From Candidatus Nanoarchaeia archaeon (GTDB lineage Archaea; Nanobdellota; Nanobdellia; UBA10117): DNA of 64,000 nt. This document shows positions 5,089-62,593 of the stretch, in pieces; the stretch's first letter is position 1; each line of letters begins with the position of its first letter. The stretch lies in contig JBMFNW010000001.1 of the NCBI GenBank assembly GCA_049969975.1, forward strand, positions 232 to 64,231, read 5' to 3'. Position numbers and translations under genes: made by a program. The notes below the pieces were generated by a model. That model was not told the DNA's origin. It saw nothing but the letters and a program-made list of their open reading frames with translations, and did not search any database.

Positions 5089-6099
5089 TCAAATTGTACT
5101 TATTTTGTTTTTTTCTATTTTAAATTTTTTGCCAAAAAATTGCTCGCAAACCCAAATATTTGTTTTTGTGTGCTGAGTTATCTCTGAAGTAACAAACTGA
5201 CCTCCAAATAGAGCTAAAAAAGGAATGAGCTGGTCTGCAAGGTGCTTATCCACTGTAGCACCAGATTTTATTTCTTTTTCAAGCTCAAATGCAACTTCTT
5301 GCCCTATTTGTTCCGCAGGCTTTCCCGGCTCGCCGAGTGCTGATGCAGCGAGCTTGCAATTGCTGAAAAGCGCATGGGCATAAAGCGAACTTCCTGGTGA
5401 TTTTGTTTTGCAGTACTCTGAAAAGGTTTTAATTTTATAGCCGTGTAAACTTGAGCAGAAAGCAGAAAGTTGCCTTTCAGCAACATTTTTCTGTTTCAAA
5501 TTTTCTGATGCAACCGAAAATGCTTTGATATCAAAAAGCTCTCCTTGCTCAAGCAAATCAAGCCTTTTTGGATTTTTAATTGGTAATGTTTTGACTTTAA
5601 CATGGCCACCTCCTAAAGGATAAAATCCTCTTGCAAGAGTTTGGCATGTTATGAGAAAACCAAACTTTTCTGCATAATCACAAAAAACATTTTCAAAAAA
5701 TTCGATTGGGGGGCTCCATGCAACATTTGTACCGCCAATTAGCTCTAGCTCTATTGGACCAGGTGCAAAAGCAGCAATTGGCGCAAGTGTTTGGAGAACA
5801 AGCGTTATTGCGCCAGCAGTGCCTATATCAAATTTAAATTTGCCAAAACGAATTTTTTTAGGCCTAAATTCTAGCTCTCTTGAGCCAAGCTCAGCGCCCT
5901 TTACATCTGCAGCACAAAGCTTTGCAGCAGCAAAAACGCTTGTCAAGTGCTGAGCTTTTAGGCCGGGCTCTGGCCTGCCAGCCCTTATGTTAAAAACTTT
6001 TATTGGAACTCCTTTAATCGCTGACAAAGAAATTGCGGTGCGAAGTATTTGTCCGCCAGATTCGCCATAGCTGCCATCAATTTCAATAAAGTCGAGCAT
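5089..6099 (-). CDS. rtcA: RNA 3'-terminal phosphate cyclase
   Basis: 336 aa. The N-terminus MLDFIEIDGSYGESGGQILRTAISLSAIKGVPIKVFNIRAGRPEPGLKAQHL is characteristic of RtcA, including the His that gets adenylylated. Confidence 0.8.
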   Translation of the reverse strand: MLDFIEIDGSYGESGGQILRTAISLSAIKGVPIKVFNIRAGRPEPGLKAQHLTSVFAAAKLCAADVKGAELGSRELEFRPKKIRFGKFKFDIGTAGAITLVLQTLAPIAAFAPGPIELELIGGTNVAWSPPIEFFENVFCDYAEKFGFLITCQTLARGFYPLGGGHVKVKTLPIKNPKRLDLLEQGELFDIKAFSVASENLKQKNVAERQLSAFCSSLHGYKIKTFSEYCKTKSPGSSLYAHALFSNCKLAASALGEPGKPAEQIGQEVAFELEKEIKSGATVDKHLADQLIPFLALFGGQFVTSEITQHTKTNIWVCEQFFGKKFKIEKNKISTI

Positions 6100-25027: not shown

Positions 25028-26038
25028 TTAGCTTTCGTCTTTAATACCTTCAGCTGTTAGCATAAATACTACTTCGCCTTCTGGTAAATGCGGGCTATCG
25101 ATTAAACGAGCAATTCTTTTTTCTCCTTTTGCTTTTCTTAAATAAATTCGATACGTTGAGCCGTGGCCCACAATATTGCCTCCTATCGCTTGTGTTGGGT
25201 TGCCAAAAAAGATTGCAGGATTTGCCATGACTTGATTTGTGACAAACACAGCCAAATTATGCGTATCAGCAAGTTTTTGCAGCGTGTGTATGTGACGATT
25301 TAGCCTCTGCTGCCTGTCTGCCAAATTTCCTCTACCCGCATATTCAGAACGGAATAATGCTGTGAGCGAATCTACAACAATTAATCTAATGTTTAAATTT
25401 TCTTTCCTAATTGCTTCATCAATTTTTTCAGCAAGAAGCATTTGATGGTCTGAACTATATGCTCGCGCCACTTTTATGTTTTGTAAAGTCTTAATTGGGT
25501 CTAGATTTTGTGCAAGTGCAAGCTGCCTTATTCTTTCAGGTCTAAATGTTCCCTCAGTATCAATAAATGCTACTTGGCCTTCTAAACCTCCTCGTTCTTT
25601 AGGAAGTTGAACGTTTACCGAAAGTTGAAATGCTAGTTGTGTTTTTGAACTTCCAAACTCTCCAAATGCTTCGGTAATTGCTCTAGTTTCTATGCCGCCA
25701 CCCAAAAGACCGTCAAGCACTTTACTTCCAGTTGTAATTCTTTCTGTTTTTTCACGCTCTTTTAAAACTTCATCGCCTGTTTTGAAACCTATTTTAATAG
25801 CTGAGCGAGCAATTTGAATGGCTTTTAAAGCAGTTTCTTTTGAAAGTTCTGCAGCCTCTGCTAATAGCTGTGGCGATGCTACTGCTAGCGACACAAGATC
25901 TGTTATTCCTGCAGCATAAAGCTTTTCTGCAGTTGCTTTGCTTATGCCCGGCAAATCTTCTATTTTTTTAATTTCGCTTTCTTCAACAATTTCATTTTTT
26001 TCATCATTTTCATCAGTTTTTTTCACCATTTTACTCAT
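25028..26038 (-). CDS. radA: DNA repair and recombination protein RadA
   Basis: N-terminal HhH ([20 protein letters not shown]), Walker [10 protein letters not shown] and a RecA/Rad51 core. 336 aa. Confidence 0.85.
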
Positions 26039-27020
26039 TTTGTTTTATTTGCCCATTTAATTTACTCATTAATTCTACTATAATATCTTTTGGATTTGGA
26101 TTTGGCTGTATTTCAAATATTGCAAATTCAAGTCTGTCTGAAATTTTACTTTTGCGAACAGTACCTTTAGCAAGAATTGTTTTTCCTAAAAGAGCATGTT
26201 GTAAGTTTTCCAAAATTTCCAAATCAGGCTTACATTCGATTCCAGTGCAGGACCATAGCAGCTCAGCGTTTTTACCAAATGCGCTGGCTCTGATCACTCC
26301 AGTGCCATCGTCTAAGTAAAAACTTATTAAAAGTCTTTTTTGTGGATCTATTACTTTATGTATTGGACAAACAAAACCTTCTGGTGCAAGGACTGCTTTT
26401 TTGCCACAAGTTGGACAAATAGGGAACCATTTTGGCGGGAATATTTTTACTATTTCAGCAAGAATTTCTGCTTTTTGACCTAAAGCCAAGTCCGAAATTG
26501 TTTTTTTTGGAATAAGGCATTCTGCAGAGCTGTCTAAAAAGGATATAATAGTACGATTTCCTGCGTGAAGTTCGTTCATACCAGCAGCATTTTGTTTAAC
26601 TTGTGCATATTTTATTTTTATTTTGCCTTTTATTTTACCTTCTTTTAGCAAATTTACTTTATCATCCCACAAAACAACTCGTATTTCACCACTTTCATCA
26701 CGAAGTAAAAAAGAGCCAACTTCTTTAGCTTCGTTTCCTTTTGTGTAAGGAATAATGCGGAATGTTCTATCAACATAGCCTTCAACATCTACGAGGCCTA
26801 TGCCAGGAACAAGATCAGAAATTTTCCAAGTTTTGCTTTGTGGTTGATTTAATAAGTTTATTCCAAGTTCTGATGCTACTATAAATGCAGCACCTTCTTC
26901 AGAAACAAGCCCTTTGAGTTCAGATATTTTTGCTTGTATTTTTTCTTTTATTTCGCTTTCTGGCAAGCCGGATTCTTCTCTTATTTTTTCAATTATTTTG
27001 CTTATTGGTATTTTAAGCAT
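26031..27020 (-). CDS. OB-fold ssDNA-binding protein (RPA-like) with C-terminal zinc ribbon
   Basis: OB-fold-like beta-rich middle region and CPTCGKK...CPIHK zinc ribbon. Adjacent to radA. Identity tentative. Confidence 0.4.
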
Positions 27021-27095
27021 TAGTTTTAAGTTTTGAGTAAGAAATATAAGTTTTTGTTTAGTGAACAAAGCATTTGTAAAAATAAAGCGTAAAAA

Positions 27096-28436
27096 TTAAA
27101 GTGCTAACCCATAAGCTCGAAGCGTTTCTCTTATTGCTGTTGGATCCTCACCACCATGCCAAGACATTTTTGGCCTGACCCGCATTGGAAATATTCTCTC
27201 TAATTTGTCATCTATGAGGACCGCAGTGCCTTTGTCTGGTGGAAGCTCGTCTATGTATTTTTGAATTGCGTATGGCAAATATGTTGCAGCTATTAAATTT
27301 AGAGCTTCTATATCTATTTTTGCGGTTAGTCTATGAGATATTACAATATCTGCTTGGGTCATTACATCTGTATGAATTTTGCCTGGCTGTTGTGTTGCTA
27401 AAACAAGCGAAATTCCTGGCTGCCTGCCTTCTCTTAAGATTTTTATGAGCGGTTCTGAAGCCAAAGTTTGTTTTTCAGTTTCTTTTGGTAAAAATTCGTG
27501 TGCTTCGTCAATGAAAATCCAAACAAGTGGAGCTTTGGCTTCTGTAACTGCTGCTTCTTCGCCAAATATAAAACCGCCTTCGGAAATTAATTTAATTTCT
27601 TCAGCTTTTCTTGCAGCCATTCTTTGCTCAAGTATTTTTTTGCATACCAATCCAATTACAAGCGCTTTAATACGATCTCCACCTTCAAGTTGTGCATACG
27701 CCGAAAGATCTAAAATTGTCGTCGTACCGCCCCTAAATAGTTCTGTAATTGGTGTACCTTCTTTCTTAAATAAACCCCATCTTTTAGCTGCTTGAAATCT
27801 ATTTTCAACAATATTTTTTTCTTCAGTGCTCGATCTAGAATCTTGTTTAGCACACTCAATAAGTTCATCGATATCAAAATCTTCTCCATATTTTTCTCGA
27901 GCAGCCTCTAATGCGCGATCGATGAGAGTTCCAGGACCAGATATTAAATCAAGGTCAAAAATTTCACACCAACTATCTGCACTTACTTCTGAAGGTTTTA
28001 TTGCAAACGGAAAATCTACAGGCACGCCTTGGCTTTGATAATTTTCATAAAGGCCGAAAGGAACATATACTAAAGGTGAATAGTTTTTCGGTCTTAAACC
28101 CCATTCTCGAAGCAATGCATCATCTCTGTAATTAGGGTATTTCATTGTCCAAAAAATACCCATCGTATCAAAAATTAAGCCCGCAATGTTTGTAGAAATA
28201 TTTGGAGGCAAGTCAACAATACCTTCAGCAATAACTGAAAGCGTGTAGCTTTTACCACTCCCTCGCTTGCCACAAACCAAAATAACGTGCGGATTTGCAA
28301 CATCTAAATAAATTGGATTTGCAAGGCTTACTGTGCTGTCAAAGCTTACATAGTTTTTACCTAAGAAAATTGTACCTGCAAGGCCAAGCTTTTCTAGTTG
28401 TTTTGGTGTCCTGCCAGCAACAATCTCATAAGCCAT
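27096..28436 (-). CDS. HerA/FtsK-superfamily P-loop ATPase (DUF87-like)
   Basis: Walker A VCGKRGSGKS and a late LATQQP block. The likely start MAYEIVAG is at 28436. The track ORF runs on to 28688, across a plus-strand tRNA-Ser, which cannot be real. Confidence 0.55.
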   Translation of the reverse strand: MAYEIVAGRTPKQLEKLGLAGTIFLGKNYVSFDSTVSLANPIYLDVANPHVILVCGKRGSGKSYTLSVIAEGIVDLPPNISTNIAGLIFDTMGIFWTMKYPNYRDDALLREWGLRPKNYSPLVYVPFGLYENYQSQGVPVDFPFAIKPSEVSADSWCEIFDLDLISGPGTLIDRALEAAREKYGEDFDIDELIECAKQDSRSSTEEKNIVENRFQAAKRWGLFKKEGTPITELFRGGTTTILDLSAYAQLEGGDRIKALVIGLVCKKILEQRMAARKAEEIKLISEGGFIFGEEAAVTEAKAPLVWIFIDEAHEFLPKETEKQTLASEPLIKILREGRQPGISLVLATQQPGKIHTDVMTQADIVISHRLTAKIDIEALNLIAATYLPYAIQKYIDELPPDKGTAVLIDDKLERIFPMRVRPKMSWHGGEDPTAIRETLRAYGLAL

Positions 28437-28496
28437 GTGTAAAGCAAACAAGTCCAAAATAAAAGGCTTTTTAAGATCAATTTTAATTAAAATTCT

Positions 28497-28580
28497 GCCG
28501 GCGTGGCAGAACCAGGTAATGCGTACGCCTCGAGAGCGTATGCCCGCAAGGGCTTCCAGGTTCAAATCCTGGCGCCGGCG
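28497..28580 (+). tRNA. tRNA-Ser (CGA), type II
   Basis: Acceptor GCCGGCG/CGCCGGC with discriminator G. Anticodon stem TACGC/GCGTA with loop CTCGAGA. Long variable arm GCCCGCAAGGGC. Canonical T-arm CCAGG-TTCAAAT-CCTGG. Confidence 0.7.
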
Positions 28581-28643
28581 CTTCAGCACAATGGTTTTAA
28601 AGAAAAGAGCAAAGATTTTAAATAAAGATTTTCTATAATTAAT

Positions 28644-28859
28644 ATGGCCAAAGAAGTTGTTGAAAAAAAAGTTAAGTTTTTTGGGCACGAAATTGTGCTG
28701 ACTTTTGTTGGTTCTTTAGTAATAACTTTCGGTATGTTGCTAATGTCTTTCGAGATTCAGCCCATGCTTTTGACTTGGCTTTTAGCTACAATGTTTGTTT
28801 GGCTAGGCCTTTTGGTATTTCTGTTCCCAATAATTAGAAAAATAGAAAAACTGCTTTAG
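28644..28859 (+). CDS. Small membrane protein (hypothetical)
   Basis: 71 aa with two hydrophobic helices. Confidence 0.35.
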   Translation: MAKEVVEKKVKFFGHEIVLTFVGSLVITFGMLLMSFEIQPMLLTWLLATMFVWLGLLVFLFPIIRKIEKLL

Positions 28860-33906: not shown

Positions 33907-33960
33907 TTGCATTTTTTATTTTTTTGTGCTTTTTTGTTTGATAAGTAAAATGAATTTTAG

Positions 33961-34035
33961 TGCCCCCGACGGGATTTGAACCCATGCCGACGGCTCGAAA
34001 GGCCGCCATCCTTGACCGGGCTAGACGACGGGGGC
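33961..34035 (-). tRNA. tRNA-Glu (UUC)
   Basis: Reverse complement gives acceptor GCCCCCG/CGGGGGC. Anticodon stem GCGGC/GCCGU with loop CUUUCGA. T-arm with TTCAAAT loop. No encoded CCA. Confidence 0.75.
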
Positions 34036-34036
34036 A

Positions 34037-34141
34037 TGGGCCGGGGCGGATTCGAACCGCCGACCTGCCGCTGGCTTAGACAGAAGCTTGCGCTTCTGCG
34101 TCATATAAGACGGCCGCTCCACCAGGCTAAGCTACCGGCCC
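34037..34141 (-). tRNA. tRNA-Ile (UAU) with 31-nt canonical intron (intron 34073..34103)
   Basis: Acceptor GGGCCGG/CCGGCCC. T-arm GGCGG-TTCGAAT-CCGCC. Variable loop AGGTC. Anticodon stem GCCGU/GCGGC. Exon loop CUUAUA|..|A. Between positions 37 and 38 lies a 31-nt insert that folds into an hBHBh' motif, with a central 4-bp helix CUUA/UAAG and two 3-nt bulges with splice sites after the 2nd bulge nucleotide, plus an internal 6-7 bp hairpin (AGAAGC...GCUUCU). Confidence 0.6.
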
Positions 34142-34185
34142 ACCAAAAATATTGTCAAAATGCTTTTTAAGTCTTATTTTTACTT

Positions 34186-36007: not shown

Positions 36008-36622
36008 ATGTCTAGGACGTTTATCCTTTACTCCCACGCCACAACAAATCCAAACTTCGATATAGACGAGCTTTATAAGGCAGGTCGGCTAGATTTAGTT
36101 TGTAGATGCGTTATAACCGCACTTTGGCTTTCTGATAGAATTAGGAAAGATACTCAAATTTTAATTAGTCTCAATGGCGGACCAAGTCCACCGGTAGCAA
36201 TTAGGTTTGATGGTGCAAAACTCAGCGGCGTTGAGCCATCTGAAAAAAGCATTGCAGCTTTAATTAAGAAATGTTTGCGAAGAGTGATTTTGCATAACAT
36301 AGAACAAAAAAGAGAATGTAAAGAATTGTTATGTAAAGAATGGTTATTTATTCATGAAGGCGTTTTTGTTTCTAAAAAATCATTTCAAGATCTTGTTAAA
36401 GATTCTGCAAATGTGCTTGTATTAGATCCTAAAGGCGAGCAAATAGAAAAAACTAAATTAGTAAGCCCAACTTTTGTTTTAGGCGATCAAAAAGGCTTGC
36501 CAAAGGCAGAATTTAAATTTTGCTTGAGAAAAGGTAAAGCACTATCTCTTGGCTCACAAATTTACTTAGCTTCAACAGTTATTGCAGTAGTAAATTGGGT
36601 GCTCGACAAATGTCAAAAGTAA
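36008..36622 (+). CDS. SPOUT-like tRNA methyltransferase, TrmY-like (tentative)
   Basis: About 200 aa with the GRLDLVCRCV motif reminiscent of TrmY (DUF358). Confidence 0.4.
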   Translation: MSRTFILYSHATTNPNFDIDELYKAGRLDLVCRCVITALWLSDRIRKDTQILISLNGGPSPPVAIRFDGAKLSGVEPSEKSIAALIKKCLRRVILHNIEQKRECKELLCKEWLFIHEGVFVSKKSFQDLVKDSANVLVLDPKGEQIEKTKLVSPTFVLGDQKGLPKAEFKFCLRKGKALSLGSQIYLASTVIAVVNWVLDKCQK

Positions 36623-37539
36623 TAATTCCAAAAGCTTTTAGAGAGAAATATAATAAAATTGCACCTAGACCAAAGGAATTTTTTAGAATTTTAGAAGAGC
36701 CCCTTGAGCCATCATTTAGAATTTGTACAAATAAAATTTCTAGAAACTTTTTAATAGAAAGGCTCAGAGCCCAAGGCTGGGAAATTGAAGCAGTACCTTT
36801 TTACAAAGATGGGTTTGTGCTAAAATCAGAACTAAGACCTGGGCTATCTGTTGAGCATTTTATGGGTTACATTTATATGCAAGAAGTTGTTTCGATGATA
36901 CCGCCAGTTGTTTTAGAACCAAAGCCTGGAGAACTTATTTTAGATATGTGTGCAGCGCCAGGCTCAAAAACAACCCAAATTTCACAAATGATGCAAAATA
37001 AGCCATTGATTTTAGCAAACGATGTTGATTGGAGAAGATTGAAACCATTAAAACATAATTTAGAAAAATGTGGCTGTTTAAATGTTGCAATTTCTTTAAT
37101 GGATGGCAGGGCAATTTCTAAAAAGCAAAAATTTGATAAAATTTTACTAGATGTGCCGTGCAGTTCTGAAGGCCAAATTAGGAAAGATTGGTCTGTTTTA
37201 TCTAGGTGGAGTTTTGATTATGTAAAAAAATTTTCTAGTTTGCAAAAAGCATTGATAGATTCTGCATTTCAATTGCTAAAGAATGGAGGTTGTTTGGTTT
37301 ATTCGACATGTACTTTTGCTCCAGAAGAAAATGAAGAGGTTATAGATTTTTTACTAAGAAAATACCAAACAGCAAAATTGGAAAAAATATGTTTAAAAGG
37401 CTTTAAAATTGCTCCAGGCATTGAAGAATTTGATGGCAAACGTTATGTTGGAGAAGTCAAATTTTGTGCACGAATTTGGCCTCATTTAAATAATAGTGGA
37501 GGTTTTTTTGTAGCAAAAATAAGAAAAAATGATGTTTGA
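36595..37539 (+). CDS. NOL1/NOP2/Sun-family RNA cytosine-C5 methyltransferase
   Basis: SAM-binding DMCAAPGSKT and catalytic Cys motifs (DVPCSSEG; VYSTCT). Confidence 0.8.
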   Translation: MGARQMSKVIIPKAFREKYNKIAPRPKEFFRILEEPLEPSFRICTNKISRNFLIERLRAQGWEIEAVPFYKDGFVLKSELRPGLSVEHFMGYIYMQEVVSMIPPVVLEPKPGELILDMCAAPGSKTTQISQMMQNKPLILANDVDWRRLKPLKHNLEKCGCLNVAISLMDGRAISKKQKFDKILLDVPCSSEGQIRKDWSVLSRWSFDYVKKFSSLQKALIDSAFQLLKNGGCLVYSTCTFAPEENEEVIDFLLRKYQTAKLEKICLKGFKIAPGIEEFDGKRYVGEVKFCARIWPHLNNSGGFFVAKIRKNDV

Positions 37540-38017
37540 ATTTCTCTCAAGCAATGAGCGAGATTCTGCTTTGAATTACTTAGTAGAGCGTTTTGGCTTT
37601 TCAAAAGCAGTTTTTGACAATTATGATTTTTATCGAACAAAAGCAGAAATAAGAATTTGTGCCAAAGGTTGTAAAGAGTACTTGCAAAAAATTCTAAATG
37701 TTTGTGATTTAGGCTACGCAGCACTCAGATACGGCAAAGTAACAAAACCAACGACAACTTTTATACAACAATTTGGCAAGTATGCAACAAAAAACATAGT
37801 TCAACTCGATGAAGCACAAGCAAAAGCATTTATAAGTGGAAAAGATTTGCGTTTAGAAAAAGAAGTTGAAAAATCAAAAGCTTCTGATGGCTATGTTATT
37901 GTAAAATACAGATCAGATTGTTTGGGTTTGGGCATTTTGAGAGGCAAACTTTTGCTTAATCAAATACCTAAAAGAAAGCGTTTGAATTTGATAGAAGAAT
38001 TTAAGCAGAAGGATTAA
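37529..38017 (+). CDS. Hypothetical protein, possible detached C-terminal PUA-like domain of the NSUN methyltransferase
   Basis: 162 aa, overlaps the upstream gene by 11 nt in another frame. Confidence 0.35.
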   Translation: MMFEFLSSNERDSALNYLVERFGFSKAVFDNYDFYRTKAEIRICAKGCKEYLQKILNVCDLGYAALRYGKVTKPTTTFIQQFGKYATKNIVQLDEAQAKAFISGKDLRLEKEVEKSKASDGYVIVKYRSDCLGLGILRGKLLLNQIPKRKRLNLIEEFKQKD

Positions 38018-43420: not shown

Positions 43421-43504
43421 GGGCCGGTAGATCAATAGTAGATCGCCGCCCTTGCAATTTCACAAGACAGGCGGAGGCTTCGGGTGCGAATCCCGACCGG
43501 TCCA
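43421..43504 (+). tRNA. tRNA-Ala (UGC) with 12-nt intron (43457..43468) in the 16S-23S spacer
   Basis: Acceptor GGGCCGG/CCGGTCC including the G3:U70 Ala identity pair. Anticodon stem CCGCC/GGCGG. Loop CTTGCA[ATTTCACAAGAC]A, where the intron 3' part CAAG pairs with exon CTTG to give a relaxed BHB. T-loop TGCGAAT (G at position 55). Confidence 0.7.
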
Positions 43505-46639: not shown

Positions 46640-46900
46640 GGAGACAAAGCCAGCAAACTTTCGCAGCAAAAGCTGTGAGGAAAGTCTGCCCATCCAAAAG
46701 CTCAAAAGGTCTTGGAAAGGACCAGGCAAACACAGAAATACACAAACTGCGTCGCAGGATGATATATTGACTTTGGCGCAGATTTGGTGAAAATGTTTGC
46801 CAGAGCGGATGCAAGTCTAAAAGACGCTAAGTAGAATGTTTGCACAACCTTCCTTCAATTGAAGGGGTTGCAACAGAAGGCAGCTTATGGCTTTGTCTCC
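46640..46900 (+). ncRNA. rnpB: RNase P RNA (reduced, about 261 nt)
   Basis: Perfect 12-bp terminal helix (GGAGACAAAGCC ... GGCTTTGTCTCC). P4 halves GAGGAAAGTCTGCCC and ACAGAAGGCAGCTTATGGC match universal RNase P CR-I and CR-V. Lies 157 nt downstream of the 23S. Confidence 0.75.
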
Positions 46901-55321: not shown

Positions 55322-56605
55322 TTAATTTCTAATTAATTTTCCAATCAAATATTTAGATTTTGCTTCAATAATTTTGCACTTCACAAACATCCCAGGCTTA
55401 ACATCAGAACAATTTAGTACAATGGGCTTGTATGCATAGTTTCGTGCAATAAAACCGCCTTTCGGTCCAATTTCATCTATCAAAACTTTTCCTTTCCAAC
55501 CTAACCAAGCTTTATTTCTTTCGAGAGCAATTTTATCATATAGTTTTGTAAGCTCTCGGGAACGAGCTTTTTTAATTTCTCCAGGTAGTTGTGGAAGTTT
55601 TGCCGCAAGTGTTCCTTGACGTGGCCAAAATTGAGATATGTTAATGACATCTGGCTTTAGCCATTTTATTAATTTAATTGTGCTTTTCCAATCCCGCTCT
55701 GTTTCCGTAGGATAACCACAAATTATGTCTGTGCTTATTGTTATGTTTGGAATTTCTTTTTTAAATGCAGAAATTATTTCTTTAAAATCAGAAACTTTAT
55801 AACCTCGTAACATTGCCTTTAGCACAGAATTTGAGCCAGATTGTACTGGTATGTGCAAGAATTTGAAAATTTTTTCTTTTTTAAAACATTCAATTAATTC
55901 TTTTTTATATTTTTTAATCCATTGTGGGTTTGCCATGCCAACTCTAACAAAGAATTCACCTTTAAGATTGCTTATTTCTTGCAAGAGTTCTGGCAAGTTT
56001 GTTCCACAATCTAAGCCGTAAGCACCACAATCTTGCGCAGTTAGCCAAATTTCTTTACAGCCTTCTGCAAGAGCACTTTTAATTTGAGAAAGAATTTTTT
56101 CTTTTGAGAAGCTAAACAAATTGCCTTTTGCAAATTTTGTTGCGCAAAAAGAACAATTTGATAAGCAGCCAGTTGCAATTTGGCAAATTTCAATTGTTTT
56201 GTTTTTTCTTATTTTCAGCGAACAAAGCTTTTCATAAGGTTTTTTTGAAATCCACACAACTCTTTTTCCAGATTTAACACTTTCAACAGCACGAGCTATT
56301 TCGCTTTGATCCCAAATACCCAACAAAGAAACATTTTGTAAATATTTTTTATATGTTTGAATTATTTGAGTTGCTTGAGCCATACACCCAGTAACAATGA
56401 TTGGTTTTATTCTTTCAAATTTTTTAACTTCTTTAATTTCGTCGACTTCTACTCTATTTTTAACAATGCAAGTATTTAGAATAATTATATCTGCTTTTTC
56501 TGGTTTTGAAACGATGCTGTGACCTGCAGCTTTCAAAGTACCGGCTAGCATTTCCGAATCAGATTGGTTTGCAGAACAACCCCATGTTTTAATACAAATT
56601 TTCAT
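55322..56605 (-). CDS. Radical-SAM methylthiotransferase (MiaB/RimO/MtaB family, archaeal e-MtaB/CDKAL1-like)
   Basis: N-terminal MTTase domain Cys triad, radical SAM CLSNCSFC and a C-terminal TRAM domain. 427 aa. Confidence 0.85.
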   Translation of the reverse strand: MKICIKTWGCSANQSDSEMLAGTLKAAGHSIVSKPEKADIIILNTCIVKNRVEVDEIKEVKKFERIKPIIVTGCMAQATQIIQTYKKYLQNVSLLGIWDQSEIARAVESVKSGKRVVWISKKPYEKLCSLKIRKNKTIEICQIATGCLSNCSFCATKFAKGNLFSFSKEKILSQIKSALAEGCKEIWLTAQDCGAYGLDCGTNLPELLQEISNLKGEFFVRVGMANPQWIKKYKKELIECFKKEKIFKFLHIPVQSGSNSVLKAMLRGYKVSDFKEIISAFKKEIPNITISTDIICGYPTETERDWKSTIKLIKWLKPDVINISQFWPRQGTLAAKLPQLPGEIKKARSRELTKLYDKIALERNKAWLGWKGKVLIDEIGPKGGFIARNYAYKPIVLNCSDVKPGMFVKCKIIEAKSKYLIGKLIRN

Positions 56606-61310: not shown

Positions 61311-62159
61311 ATGGATTTTTTGAGAAAAAAAGCACTCATTTTTTTGCTACTAATGTTTATTTTATTTATTTTTATAATTGTTTTAATTCCTGAAAAAGAA
61401 AAAAGTTGTGATGAGCTTATTTCTGAAATTCCTAAATTAATTGAACAAGCGAAAGCAGCAAGGGCATTTTATGTTAGTAATGTTATTGATGGCGATACAA
61501 TTGTTTTGGATAATGGTAAAAAAGTTAGGTTGCTTGGAATTAATGCGCCAGAAAAAGACATGCCTTTTTATGATTCTGCCAAAAATTTCACCAAAAATTT
61601 AACATTAGGTAAAAAAGTCTATTTGGTAAGAGATTCTTCTGACAAAGATCTCTATGGACGATCTTTAAGATATGTTTTTACAGAAGATGTTTTTGTAAAT
61701 GCAGAATTACTAAAGCAAGGTTTGGCAACACTTTTCATTGTTGAGCCAAATACAAAATATGCTAAGTTATTTTCTTGTTTGGAAGAGTATGCTAGGCAAA
61801 ACAAACTTTCTATTTGGTCTAAAACAAAACATTACTCTTTAAATATCACAGTAAATTTTGATGCCCCTGGCAGCGATTCTGAAAATTTGAATGGCGAATT
61901 TGTTCAAATTTGGAATTTTGGAACAGAACCAATAAATCTTACAGGTTGGATTATAAAAGATGCAGCCAAACATATTTACAAGTTTGAAAATTTTGTTTTG
62001 CTTCCAAATAAAAAAGTAACCATTTATACTGGTTTTGGAAATGATTCTGATGAAGAATTATATTGGAATTCAGAAGCGCCTATTTGGAACAATGATGGTG
62101 ACACTGCATATTTATTTGATAATGAAGGTAATTTAGTTGCTTGGTTAACTTTTCCCTAA
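61311..62159 (+). CDS. Membrane-anchored staphylococcal-nuclease (SNase/thermonuclease)-like protein with C-terminal lamin-tail domain
   Basis: N-terminal TM. SNase motifs (VIDGDTIVL; RLLGINAPE; YGRSLRYVF). C-terminal LTD (NLNGEFVQIWNFGTEPINLTGWIIKD...TIYTG). Confidence 0.7.
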   Translation: MDFLRKKALIFLLLMFILFIFIIVLIPEKEKSCDELISEIPKLIEQAKAARAFYVSNVIDGDTIVLDNGKKVRLLGINAPEKDMPFYDSAKNFTKNLTLGKKVYLVRDSSDKDLYGRSLRYVFTEDVFVNAELLKQGLATLFIVEPNTKYAKLFSCLEEYARQNKLSIWSKTKHYSLNITVNFDAPGSDSENLNGEFVQIWNFGTEPINLTGWIIKDAAKHIYKFENFVLLPNKKVTIYTGFGNDSDEELYWNSEAPIWNNDGDTAYLFDNEGNLVAWLTFP

Positions 62160-62471
62160 CCTTTTTTCTTTGATGTATGGATACCTATTGATGTGACCAC
62201 AAGCCTTGCATATGTATTCTACTGCTTTGAGTTTTGGATTCAATTTAATTTGTACATTTTTACCTGGTTGGAGCCAAGTATAGCATTTGTGACAAAACTT
62301 TCTTCTTTGTTCTCTCGAGAATCTTAAATTAAATTTCATCGCGAGTTTTCTTGCTAAAAAAAGGTATCTTGTTGCACGATCGATATTCCCAGTTTTAGCT
62401 GCAGCTTCAGCCTCTTTAAAAAGTATGTCAATACGTTCAGAAGCAATTTTTTTCCAATCAGATTTTAGCAT
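62145..62471 (-). CDS. rpr2: RNase P protein subunit Rpr2/Rpp21
   Basis: 108 aa with N-terminal helices and a zinc ribbon (CHKCYTWL...CKACGH). Confidence 0.7.
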   Translation of the reverse strand: MLKSDWKKIASERIDILFKEAEAAAKTGNIDRATRYLFLARKLAMKFNLRFSREQRRKFCHKCYTWLQPGKNVQIKLNPKLKAVEYICKACGHINRYPYIKEKRLGKS

Positions 62472-62476
62472 AACAA

Positions 62477-62593
62477 TGCTAGCAGCTTTCCACCCTTCCC
62501 GCCTGTTCGGCAGTACAAAGTGGAACGTTGCTGGGATTCACTTCCGTGTTCGGAATGGGTACGGGTCTTGCCCCAGCACTTTGACCGCTAGCA
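62477..62593 (-). rRNA. rrf: 5S rRNA
   Basis: Reverse complement contains CCCATTCCGAACACGGAAGTGAA (loop C/helix III signature). The 5' UGCUAGC pairs with the 3' GCUAGCA (helix I). TATA-like ATATTTAAAAAT lies about 25 nt upstream on the minus strand. Ends +/-3 nt. Confidence 0.8.

Follow-up and report, generated by a model that had tools for sequence, protein, structure and literature searches.

How an archaeon with an AT-rich genome reads the isoleucine codon AUA, and whether it does so with a tRNA whose UAU anticodon is encoded in the gene itself, is the question raised by a locus in the window, as we call the whole 64-kb stretch of DNA that was analysed. The codon is much used there: going by approximate gene predictions for the window, AUA accounts for 523 of 1384 isoleucine codons (38%), or about 32 per 1000 codons, and the GC content is about 35%. 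The window is archaeal, with archaeal 16S and 23S rRNA, RNase P RNA, topoisomerase VI, thermosome, RadA and a family B DNA polymerase. At a finer scale, the thermosome protein is identical to an NCBI entry named 'Candidatus Nanoarchaeia archaeon', with only DPANN among its nearest relatives, and the window from about 29.2 to 36.2 kb is collinear with the Nanoarchaeia MAG SZTDM-2_201709_bins_148 (locus L082; about 8 kb of synteny, nucleotide identity about 70%), the best translated segment being the topoisomerase VI A gene (85% identical). The topoisomerase VI A protein also recurs in the MAGs GCA_049971315.1 and GCA_049970555.1. Thermosome identity and collinearity with L082 thus independently confirm the DPANN-like placement of the original prediction.

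The tRNA gene lies on the minus strand, running from 34141 to 34037, and is divided as follows.

34037..34141, minus strand: pre-tRNA-Ile(UAU) gene, 105 nt, consisting of a 74-nt mature body and a 31-nt intron (Rfam RF00005, ARAGORN -i)
34104..34141, minus strand: 5' exon, tRNA positions 1-37, ending in GCCGU CUUAUA (from the sequence)
34105..34107, minus strand: anticodon U34 A35 U36 (sequence, Rfam alignment and ARAGORN)
34073..34103, minus strand: 31-nt intron UGACGCAGAAGCGCAAGCUUCUGUCUAAGCC at the canonical 37/38 site (BHB geometry; same length in ARAGORN)
34037..34072, minus strand: 3' exon, tRNA positions 38-73, beginning with A38 followed by GCGGC (from the sequence)

The RF00005 match spans 34037-34141 exactly and scores 53.2 bits (gathering score 29; E=1.3e-8 for the whole window); its alignment covers model positions 1-71, with 32 nt inserted in the anticodon loop to take up the intron. 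ARAGORN does not report the gene at 34037-34141 under default settings, and in intron mode calls it tRNA-Ile with anticodon tat and i(41,31), that is, a 31-nt intron. The program does not model BHB motifs, and it places the intron 1 nt further 3' than the BHB-defined site, such that N38 would be U instead of A, with the anticodon unchanged. Read explicitly, the minus strand gives GGGCCGG UA GCUU AGCCUGGUG GAGC G GCCGU CUUAUA [intron UGACGCAGAAGCGCAAGCUUCUGUCUAAGCC] A GCGGC AGGUC GGCGG UUCGAAU CCGCC CCGGCCC A, in which all four cloverleaf arms are intact and the 3' CCA is absent. Next to the loop, the anticodon stem closes with a U31-G39 wobble pair (window positions 34110 and 34071), a feature of 27 of the 38 intron-bearing DPANN tRNA-Ile(UAU) genes among the matches listed, the window's gene included. 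A tRNA-Ile(UAU) gene with a 31-nt intron is hereby confirmed at this locus.

In the published definition of the archaeal BHB (PMC4090602), a central helix of 4 bp has a 3-nt bulge at each end, one on either strand, and the intron pairs with the first two bases of the anticodon. The anticodon arm and intron of the precursor, GCCGU CUUA UAU GAC GC AGAAGC GCAA GCUUCU GUC UAAG CCA GCGGC, resolve into the following elements.

34106..34109, minus strand: 5' strand of the BHB central helix, C32 U33 U34 A35, paired with 34075-34078
34075..34078, minus strand: 3' strand of the BHB central helix, intron UAAG
34103..34105, minus strand: 5' 3-nt bulge U36-A37-U(i1), with a cut predicted from the geometry after A37 (34104)
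34072..34074, minus strand: 3' 3-nt bulge C-C-A38, with a cut predicted from the geometry before A38 (34072)
34082..34097, minus strand: intron hairpin AGAAGC-GCAA-GCUUCU, extendable to 8 bp (MFE and suboptimal folds)

The 5-bp anticodon stem serves as the outer helix h, CUUA/UAAG forms the 4-bp central helix, and the inner helix h' can be read either as GAC/GUC (3 bp) or as a G-C pair followed by the 8-bp hairpin, each at -17.4 kcal/mol. By its geometry (4-bp helix, opposite 3-nt bulges, outer and inner helices, 37/38 site) the motif is a strict hBHBh'. The arm folded explicitly in this way is at -17.4 kcal/mol, against -18.1 kcal/mol for the MFE of the arm, a gap of 0.7. The MFE fold of the whole precursor (z = -3.1 against shuffles) contains no cloverleaf, and so an explicit cloverleaf with BHB was evaluated instead, giving -46.3 kcal/mol. 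The standard BHB cut falls after the second nucleotide of each bulge, and splicing at the BHB bulges here would leave a mature anticodon loop of 7 nt, CUUAUAA, with U33 and a purine at position 37. A role of the intron as a box C/D guide RNA, like those in archaeal tRNA-Trp introns, was considered and rejected: its 31 nt contain neither UGAUGA (C box, RUGAUGA) nor CUGA (D box), and are too few besides.

The original prediction of this gene was accurate in its particulars. Its coordinates are those of the Rfam match (the strand, minus, had not been stated); the intron-containing tRNA-Ile with a mature UAU anticodon that it described is recovered both by Rfam at 53.2 bits and by ARAGORN -i as Ile(tat); and geometry, ARAGORN intron length and helix conservation agree with the strict hBHBh' intron at 37/38 that it had drawn, with CUUA/UAAG, the bulges UAU and CCA, and the spliced loop CUUAUAA. 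The internal hairpin, given there as 6-7 bp, is seen as one of 6-8 bp with a GCAA loop.

Conservation of this motif was examined by scanning species-representative genomes with the pattern GGGCNNNTAGCTNAGN{5,10}GAGCNNNNNNYTTATA, which yielded at least 120 loci, comprising tRNA-Ile(UAU)-pattern matches in at least 53 archaeal and at least 67 bacterial species representatives. The archaeal representatives are nearly all labelled DPANN: labels among the matches listed are Woesearchaeota, Nanoarchaeia, Pacearchaeota, Micrarchaeota, Aenigmatarchaeota, Undinarchaeota and Iainarchaeota, with one Marsarchaeota (L091) and one Thermoplasmata (L008). With the intron reading anchored on the T-arm, 49 archaeal homologues were resolved and 4 loci were not, so that the window's gene brings the set to 50. 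Among the matches listed, the gene is interrupted at 37/38 in 37 of the 49 resolved homologues and free of introns in 12 (38 of 50 with an intron when the window is included), and intron lengths in the 38 intron-bearing genes range from 21 to 138 nt. A full 4-bp partner stands opposite CUUA in 28 of these 38 genes (the window's and 37 homologues), as UAAG in 17, UAGG in 6, UGAG in 3 and UGGG in 2; calculated from the pairing rules, the chance of a fully paired partner is about 1/64. The central helix is 91.4% paired across the 38 genes, against 22-46% when the 3' partners are slid, a figure for the whole structure, and the first two pairs of the inner helix h' covary, with both sides changing. 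The anticodon-stem helix is not counted as evidence, because it was used to set the alignment register.

The nearest comparison is with the syntenic gene of L082. Its exons are identical to those of the window at 69 of 74 positions and its intron at only about 15 of 31; a change in the T-stem is compensated (G49A with C65U), and the intron hairpin, CUCUUC-GUUA-GAGGAG, is of another sequence in the same place, with the BHB kept. A diverged intron that keeps its fold is the pattern expected of a spliced intron selected for shape and not for sequence. The pre-tRNA sequence is identical in the two MAGs that share the topoisomerase VI A protein (GCA_049971315.1 and GCA_049970555.1; L001 and L002).

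Several other features of the homologues were observed. An apparent second intron lies in the T-loop of L055, L060, L062, L069, L093, L113 and L122, after GGTTCAAA and before the 3' T-stem; the window's tRNA-Ile(UAU) gene has one intron only. An interruption of this sort is typical of multi-intron DPANN tRNAs. Six MAGs named 'uncultured Methanosarcinales archaeon' (binchicken co-assemblies: L035, L055, L062, L084, L113 and L114) carry Nanoarchaeia-like intron-bearing tRNA-Ile(UAU) genes, and their labels are probably placeholders or errors; in L035 and L062 a tRNA-Glu(UUC) gene lies downstream too. The 67 bacterial matches listed are mostly CPR/Patescibacteria (Saccharibacteria, Peregrinibacteria, Uhrbacteria, Paceibacterota and others; L009, L016, L028, L030, L058 and L079 are examples) and have no intron, and some 'uncultured Gammaproteobacteria' labels among them look like placeholders.

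The surroundings of the gene suggest how it may be transcribed. Two elements on the same strand flank it.

33960..34035, minus strand: tRNA-Glu(UUC) gene, 1 nt downstream of the tRNA-Ile(UAU) gene (ARAGORN, Rfam)
34162..34180, minus strand: putative archaeal BRE/TATA element AAAATAAGA-CTTAAAAA-GC, 21-39 nt upstream of the tRNA 5' end, a promoter by presumption

L082 has the same Ile-Glu arrangement and a similar element, AAATAAGA-TTTTTAAA-GC, at the same distance upstream. Among the matches listed, a downstream same-strand tRNA-Glu(UUC) gene is found in 14 of the 50 resolved genes, the window's included, and in 6 of these 14, L082 among them, it starts 105-131 nt past the start of the tRNA-Ile gene. 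The simplest reading is that tRNA-Glu(UUC) is the probable dicistronic partner of tRNA-Ile(UAU). The two would then probably be transcribed jointly from the gene's own BRE/TATA promoter, and processing by RNase P and RNase Z would free them from each other. Excision of the intron, with cuts behind A37 and in front of A38, would fall to the archaeal splicing endonuclease, to be followed by RtcB-type ligation of the exons and the addition of CCA. A t6A37-type modification and charging by IleRS would presumably follow, whereupon, in the mature loop C32-U33-U34-A35-U36-A37-A38, U34 would pair with the A of AUA, and the tRNA would stand in for the usual archaeal tRNA-Ile2(CAU) with its TiaS-made agmatidine. 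The 64-kb window encodes no splicing endonuclease, RtcB or IleRS; an RtcA (RNA 3'-phosphate cyclase) gene is found at 5089-6099 on the minus strand.

Other RNA genes and RNA-related genes of the window may be recorded here. A tRNA-Ala(UGC) gene in the 16S-23S spacer (43421-43504, plus strand), missed by default ARAGORN, has a 12-nt intron at 37/38 with the central helix CUUG/CAAG. The RNase P RNA (46642-46898, plus strand; 107 bits) is compact at 257 nt and follows the 23S rRNA, encoded on the same strand, after a gap of only about 160 nt, and the gene for the RNase P protein Rpp21 (62145-62471) adjoins a separate 5S rRNA gene (62477-62592). A cluster of RNA-modification genes (36008-38017, plus strand), 2-4 kb from the tRNA, comprises TrmY (m1-pseudouridine54 methyltransferase), an NSUN-family m5C methyltransferase and a separate PUA-domain ORF. 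The longest frame of a HerA/FtsK-like ATPase ORF (27096-28688, minus strand) overlaps a tRNA-Ser(CGA) gene on the opposite strand (28497-28581, plus), and its true start codon is probably further downstream.

What amino acid AUA stands for was read from the thermosome gene, for which the solved Thermococcus thermosome 1q3r gives a gap-free alignment. Of the 15 ATA codons in the gene, 7 stand opposite V, 5 opposite I and one each opposite F, L and M (I or V in 12 of 15), while 10 of its 16 ATG codons stand opposite M. In the 73 homologues at 70% identity or less, the ATA columns contain I at 51%, V at 34% and M at 6%, and the ATG columns contain M at 64%; the 120 thermosome homologues are mostly conceptual translations from DPANN, and 1q3r was added as an independent reference. 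ATA columns of I and V beside ATG columns of M indicate that AUA is read as an Ile-like residue and not as Met, and this comparison is indirect evidence that AUA is translated as isoleucine.

We conclude, with a probability of about 0.9, that the locus encodes the AUA-decoding tRNA-Ile(UAU) ('Ile3') of a Nanoarchaeia-class DPANN archaeon, predicted to be spliced at a BHB and to serve in place of tRNA-Ile2(CAU) and TiaS. Against this stands a reading in which the genome keeps tRNA-Ile2(CAU) and TiaS elsewhere and the UAU tRNA is a redundant, supplementary decoder of AUA. The window has no CAU-anticodon tRNA (ARAGORN in default and intron mode, Rfam) and no TiaS, the 60 ORFs scanned against Pfam being without TiaS domains, and this absence covers 64 kb only. 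One ORF (26031-27068) with an OB fold of the 'tRNA_anti-codon' family was considered as TiaS, which also contains that fold, and was rejected: NCBIfam assigns it to replication factor A, and it adjoins RadA. Redundancy has precedent in bacteria, some of which have tilS and tRNA-Ile(TAT) together (PMC3575796), and two of the archaeal matches bear non-DPANN labels, those of Thermoplasmata (L008) and Marsarchaeota (L091). Lineages such as these would usually be expected to retain TiaS. The characterised archaeal cases, however, all lack Ile2(CAU) (N. equitans, K. cryptofilum and ARMAN-2/4/5), and ARMAN lacks TiaS as well (PMC8450103, PMC3239211); with the window's own lack of both, we consider redundancy distinctly improbable.

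Two further alternatives deny that the gene yields an isoleucine tRNA at all. That the locus is a pseudogene, or resembles a tRNA by chance and gives no functional product, could be argued from the silence of default ARAGORN, but is very hard to reconcile with a score of 53 bits on the tRNA covariance model, four intact arms and a strict BHB, with a syntenic ortholog in L082 that combines a compensated T-stem change with a diverged yet folding intron, and with identical copies in two further MAGs and the heavy use of AUA. That the tRNA reads AUA but carries another amino acid, for instance Met as in mitochondria, with AUA reassigned, starts from two facts: a UAU anticodon is not by itself enough to determine which amino acid is attached, and the anticodon is read by IleRS and MetRS alike. 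It is scarcely credible in view of the thermosome, where, in the comparison with Thermococcus, I or V stands opposite 12 of the 15 ATA codons and M opposite one, and where M makes up 6% of the ATA columns in 73 homologues. The start of the acceptor stem, GGGCC, and the discriminator A73 are likewise what we take to be Ile-like among archaeal tRNA-Ile.

Reading AUA through an encoded U34 has its demands. A U34 mutant of haloarchaeal tRNA-Ile gains cnm5U34, binds AUG and AUU as well, and is a poor substrate of the native IleRS (PMC3895270), which implies that the tRNA-Ile(UAU) system of the present organism needs adaptations. How U34 avoids AUG has been studied only in Mycoplasma mobile. The window encodes an archaeal-type MiaB-like ms2t6A37 methylthiotransferase (55322-56605, minus strand; TIGR01578, 454 bits against a cutoff of 315). 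Hypermodification of A37 of the ms2t6A37 kind would suit an all-A/U anticodon.

The view that such genes are rare and limited to Nanoarchaeota and Korarchaeota, which accompanied the original prediction, has to be given up, as ARMAN-2, -4 and -5 have them (PMC3239211) and at least 53 archaeal species representatives match the pattern. The premise derives from surveys of cultured or complete genomes (for example, 2 of 167 genomes; PMC6000648) and fails for DPANN MAGs. The literature searched still limits archaeal tRNA-Ile(UAU) to N. equitans, K. cryptofilum and ARMAN, and a DPANN-wide or CPR-wide description was not found in it. The kind of gene was already described in 2011, is routine in DPANN and is ordinary for the lineage: an AT-rich DPANN genome would be expected to decode AUA in this way, and the gene matters little for the window alone. 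As tRNA finders blind to introns miss it, its main use is as an annotation check, and as a lineage marker.

A wider hypothesis, which we offer as speculation and think unlikely to hold, is that tRNA-Ile(UAU) is general in both ultra-small radiations (DPANN and CPR/Patescibacteria), and that in DPANN an intron pairing with U34 and A35 could be so often kept because of an intron-dependent modification of the anticodon, as in eukaryotic tRNA-Ile(UAU), that guards against the misreading of AUG. An obligatory role of the intron is not favoured, because 12 of 49 homologues are intron-less and neighbouring tRNAs often bear introns (at least 25 of 58). A specific enrichment of introns in tRNA-Ile(UAU) was also looked for and finds no support: by ARAGORN -i, 19 of 33 tRNA-Ile(UAU) genes have introns against 25 of 58 neighbouring tRNAs (Fisher p=0.2), a crude count, since roughly every second intron-bearing Ile gene escapes ARAGORN.

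Among known systems, the canonical archaeal tRNA-Ile2(CAU) with TiaS performs the same task, reading AUA as isoleucine without reading AUG. There, C34 is converted to agm2C by TiaS, whereas here the wobble U is encoded and TiaS is not found in the 64-kb window. Mycoplasma mobile tRNA-Ile2(UAU) also decodes AUA by a UAU tRNA and not by a modified cytidine, in a reduced genome; it is the sole case with its mechanism worked out, in which AUG is avoided by a tRNA with t6A37 and no modification of U34, together with an adapted IleRS and a ribosome that does not accept AUG (PMC3575796). It differs in being bacterial and intron-less, and in that TilS, not TiaS, was replaced. Eukaryotic cytosolic tRNA-Ile(UAU) shares the UAU anticodon, an intron 1 nt 3' of the anticodon and the pairing of the first anticodon bases with the intron (PMC4090602). 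In yeast its pseudouridines are intron-dependent, the intron being needed for Pus1 to act at U34 and U36, and recognition by the eukaryotic endonuclease is unlike the BHB rule (PMC4090602); in the archaeal set, the 12 of 49 resolved homologues without an intron mark a further difference.

Within the archaea, Nanoarchaeum equitans and Korarchaeum cryptofilum are the textbook cases, using tRNA-Ile3(UAU) instead of Ile2 (PMC8450103, PMC6000648, PMC3895270). The genomic UAU anticodon makes Ile2(CAU) unnecessary there, and the K. cryptofilum gene also bears an intron, although this organism is not a DPANN archaeon and its UAU tRNA resembles a recent copy of its own tRNA-Ile(GAU) (PMC8450103, PMC6000648). 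The DPANN archaea ARMAN-2, -4 and -5 were reported to encode tRNA-Ile(UAU) but neither tRNA-Ile(CAU) nor TiaS (Fujishima et al. 2011, PMC3239211). The ARMAN-2 pre-tRNA-Ile(UAU), whose 25-nt intron lies at 37/38 within a strict hBHBh' motif, is cleaved in vitro with the epsilon2 endonuclease of ARMAN-2 (PMC3239211). The present gene belongs to Nanoarchaeia and not to ARMAN, has an intron of 31 instead of 25 nt and was characterised at the sequence level, yet is like that of ARMAN-2 in its UAU anticodon and strict hBHBh' at 37/38, and the ARMAN tRNA-Ile(UAU) has been published as a substitute for tRNA-Ile(CAU) and TiaS (PMC3239211).
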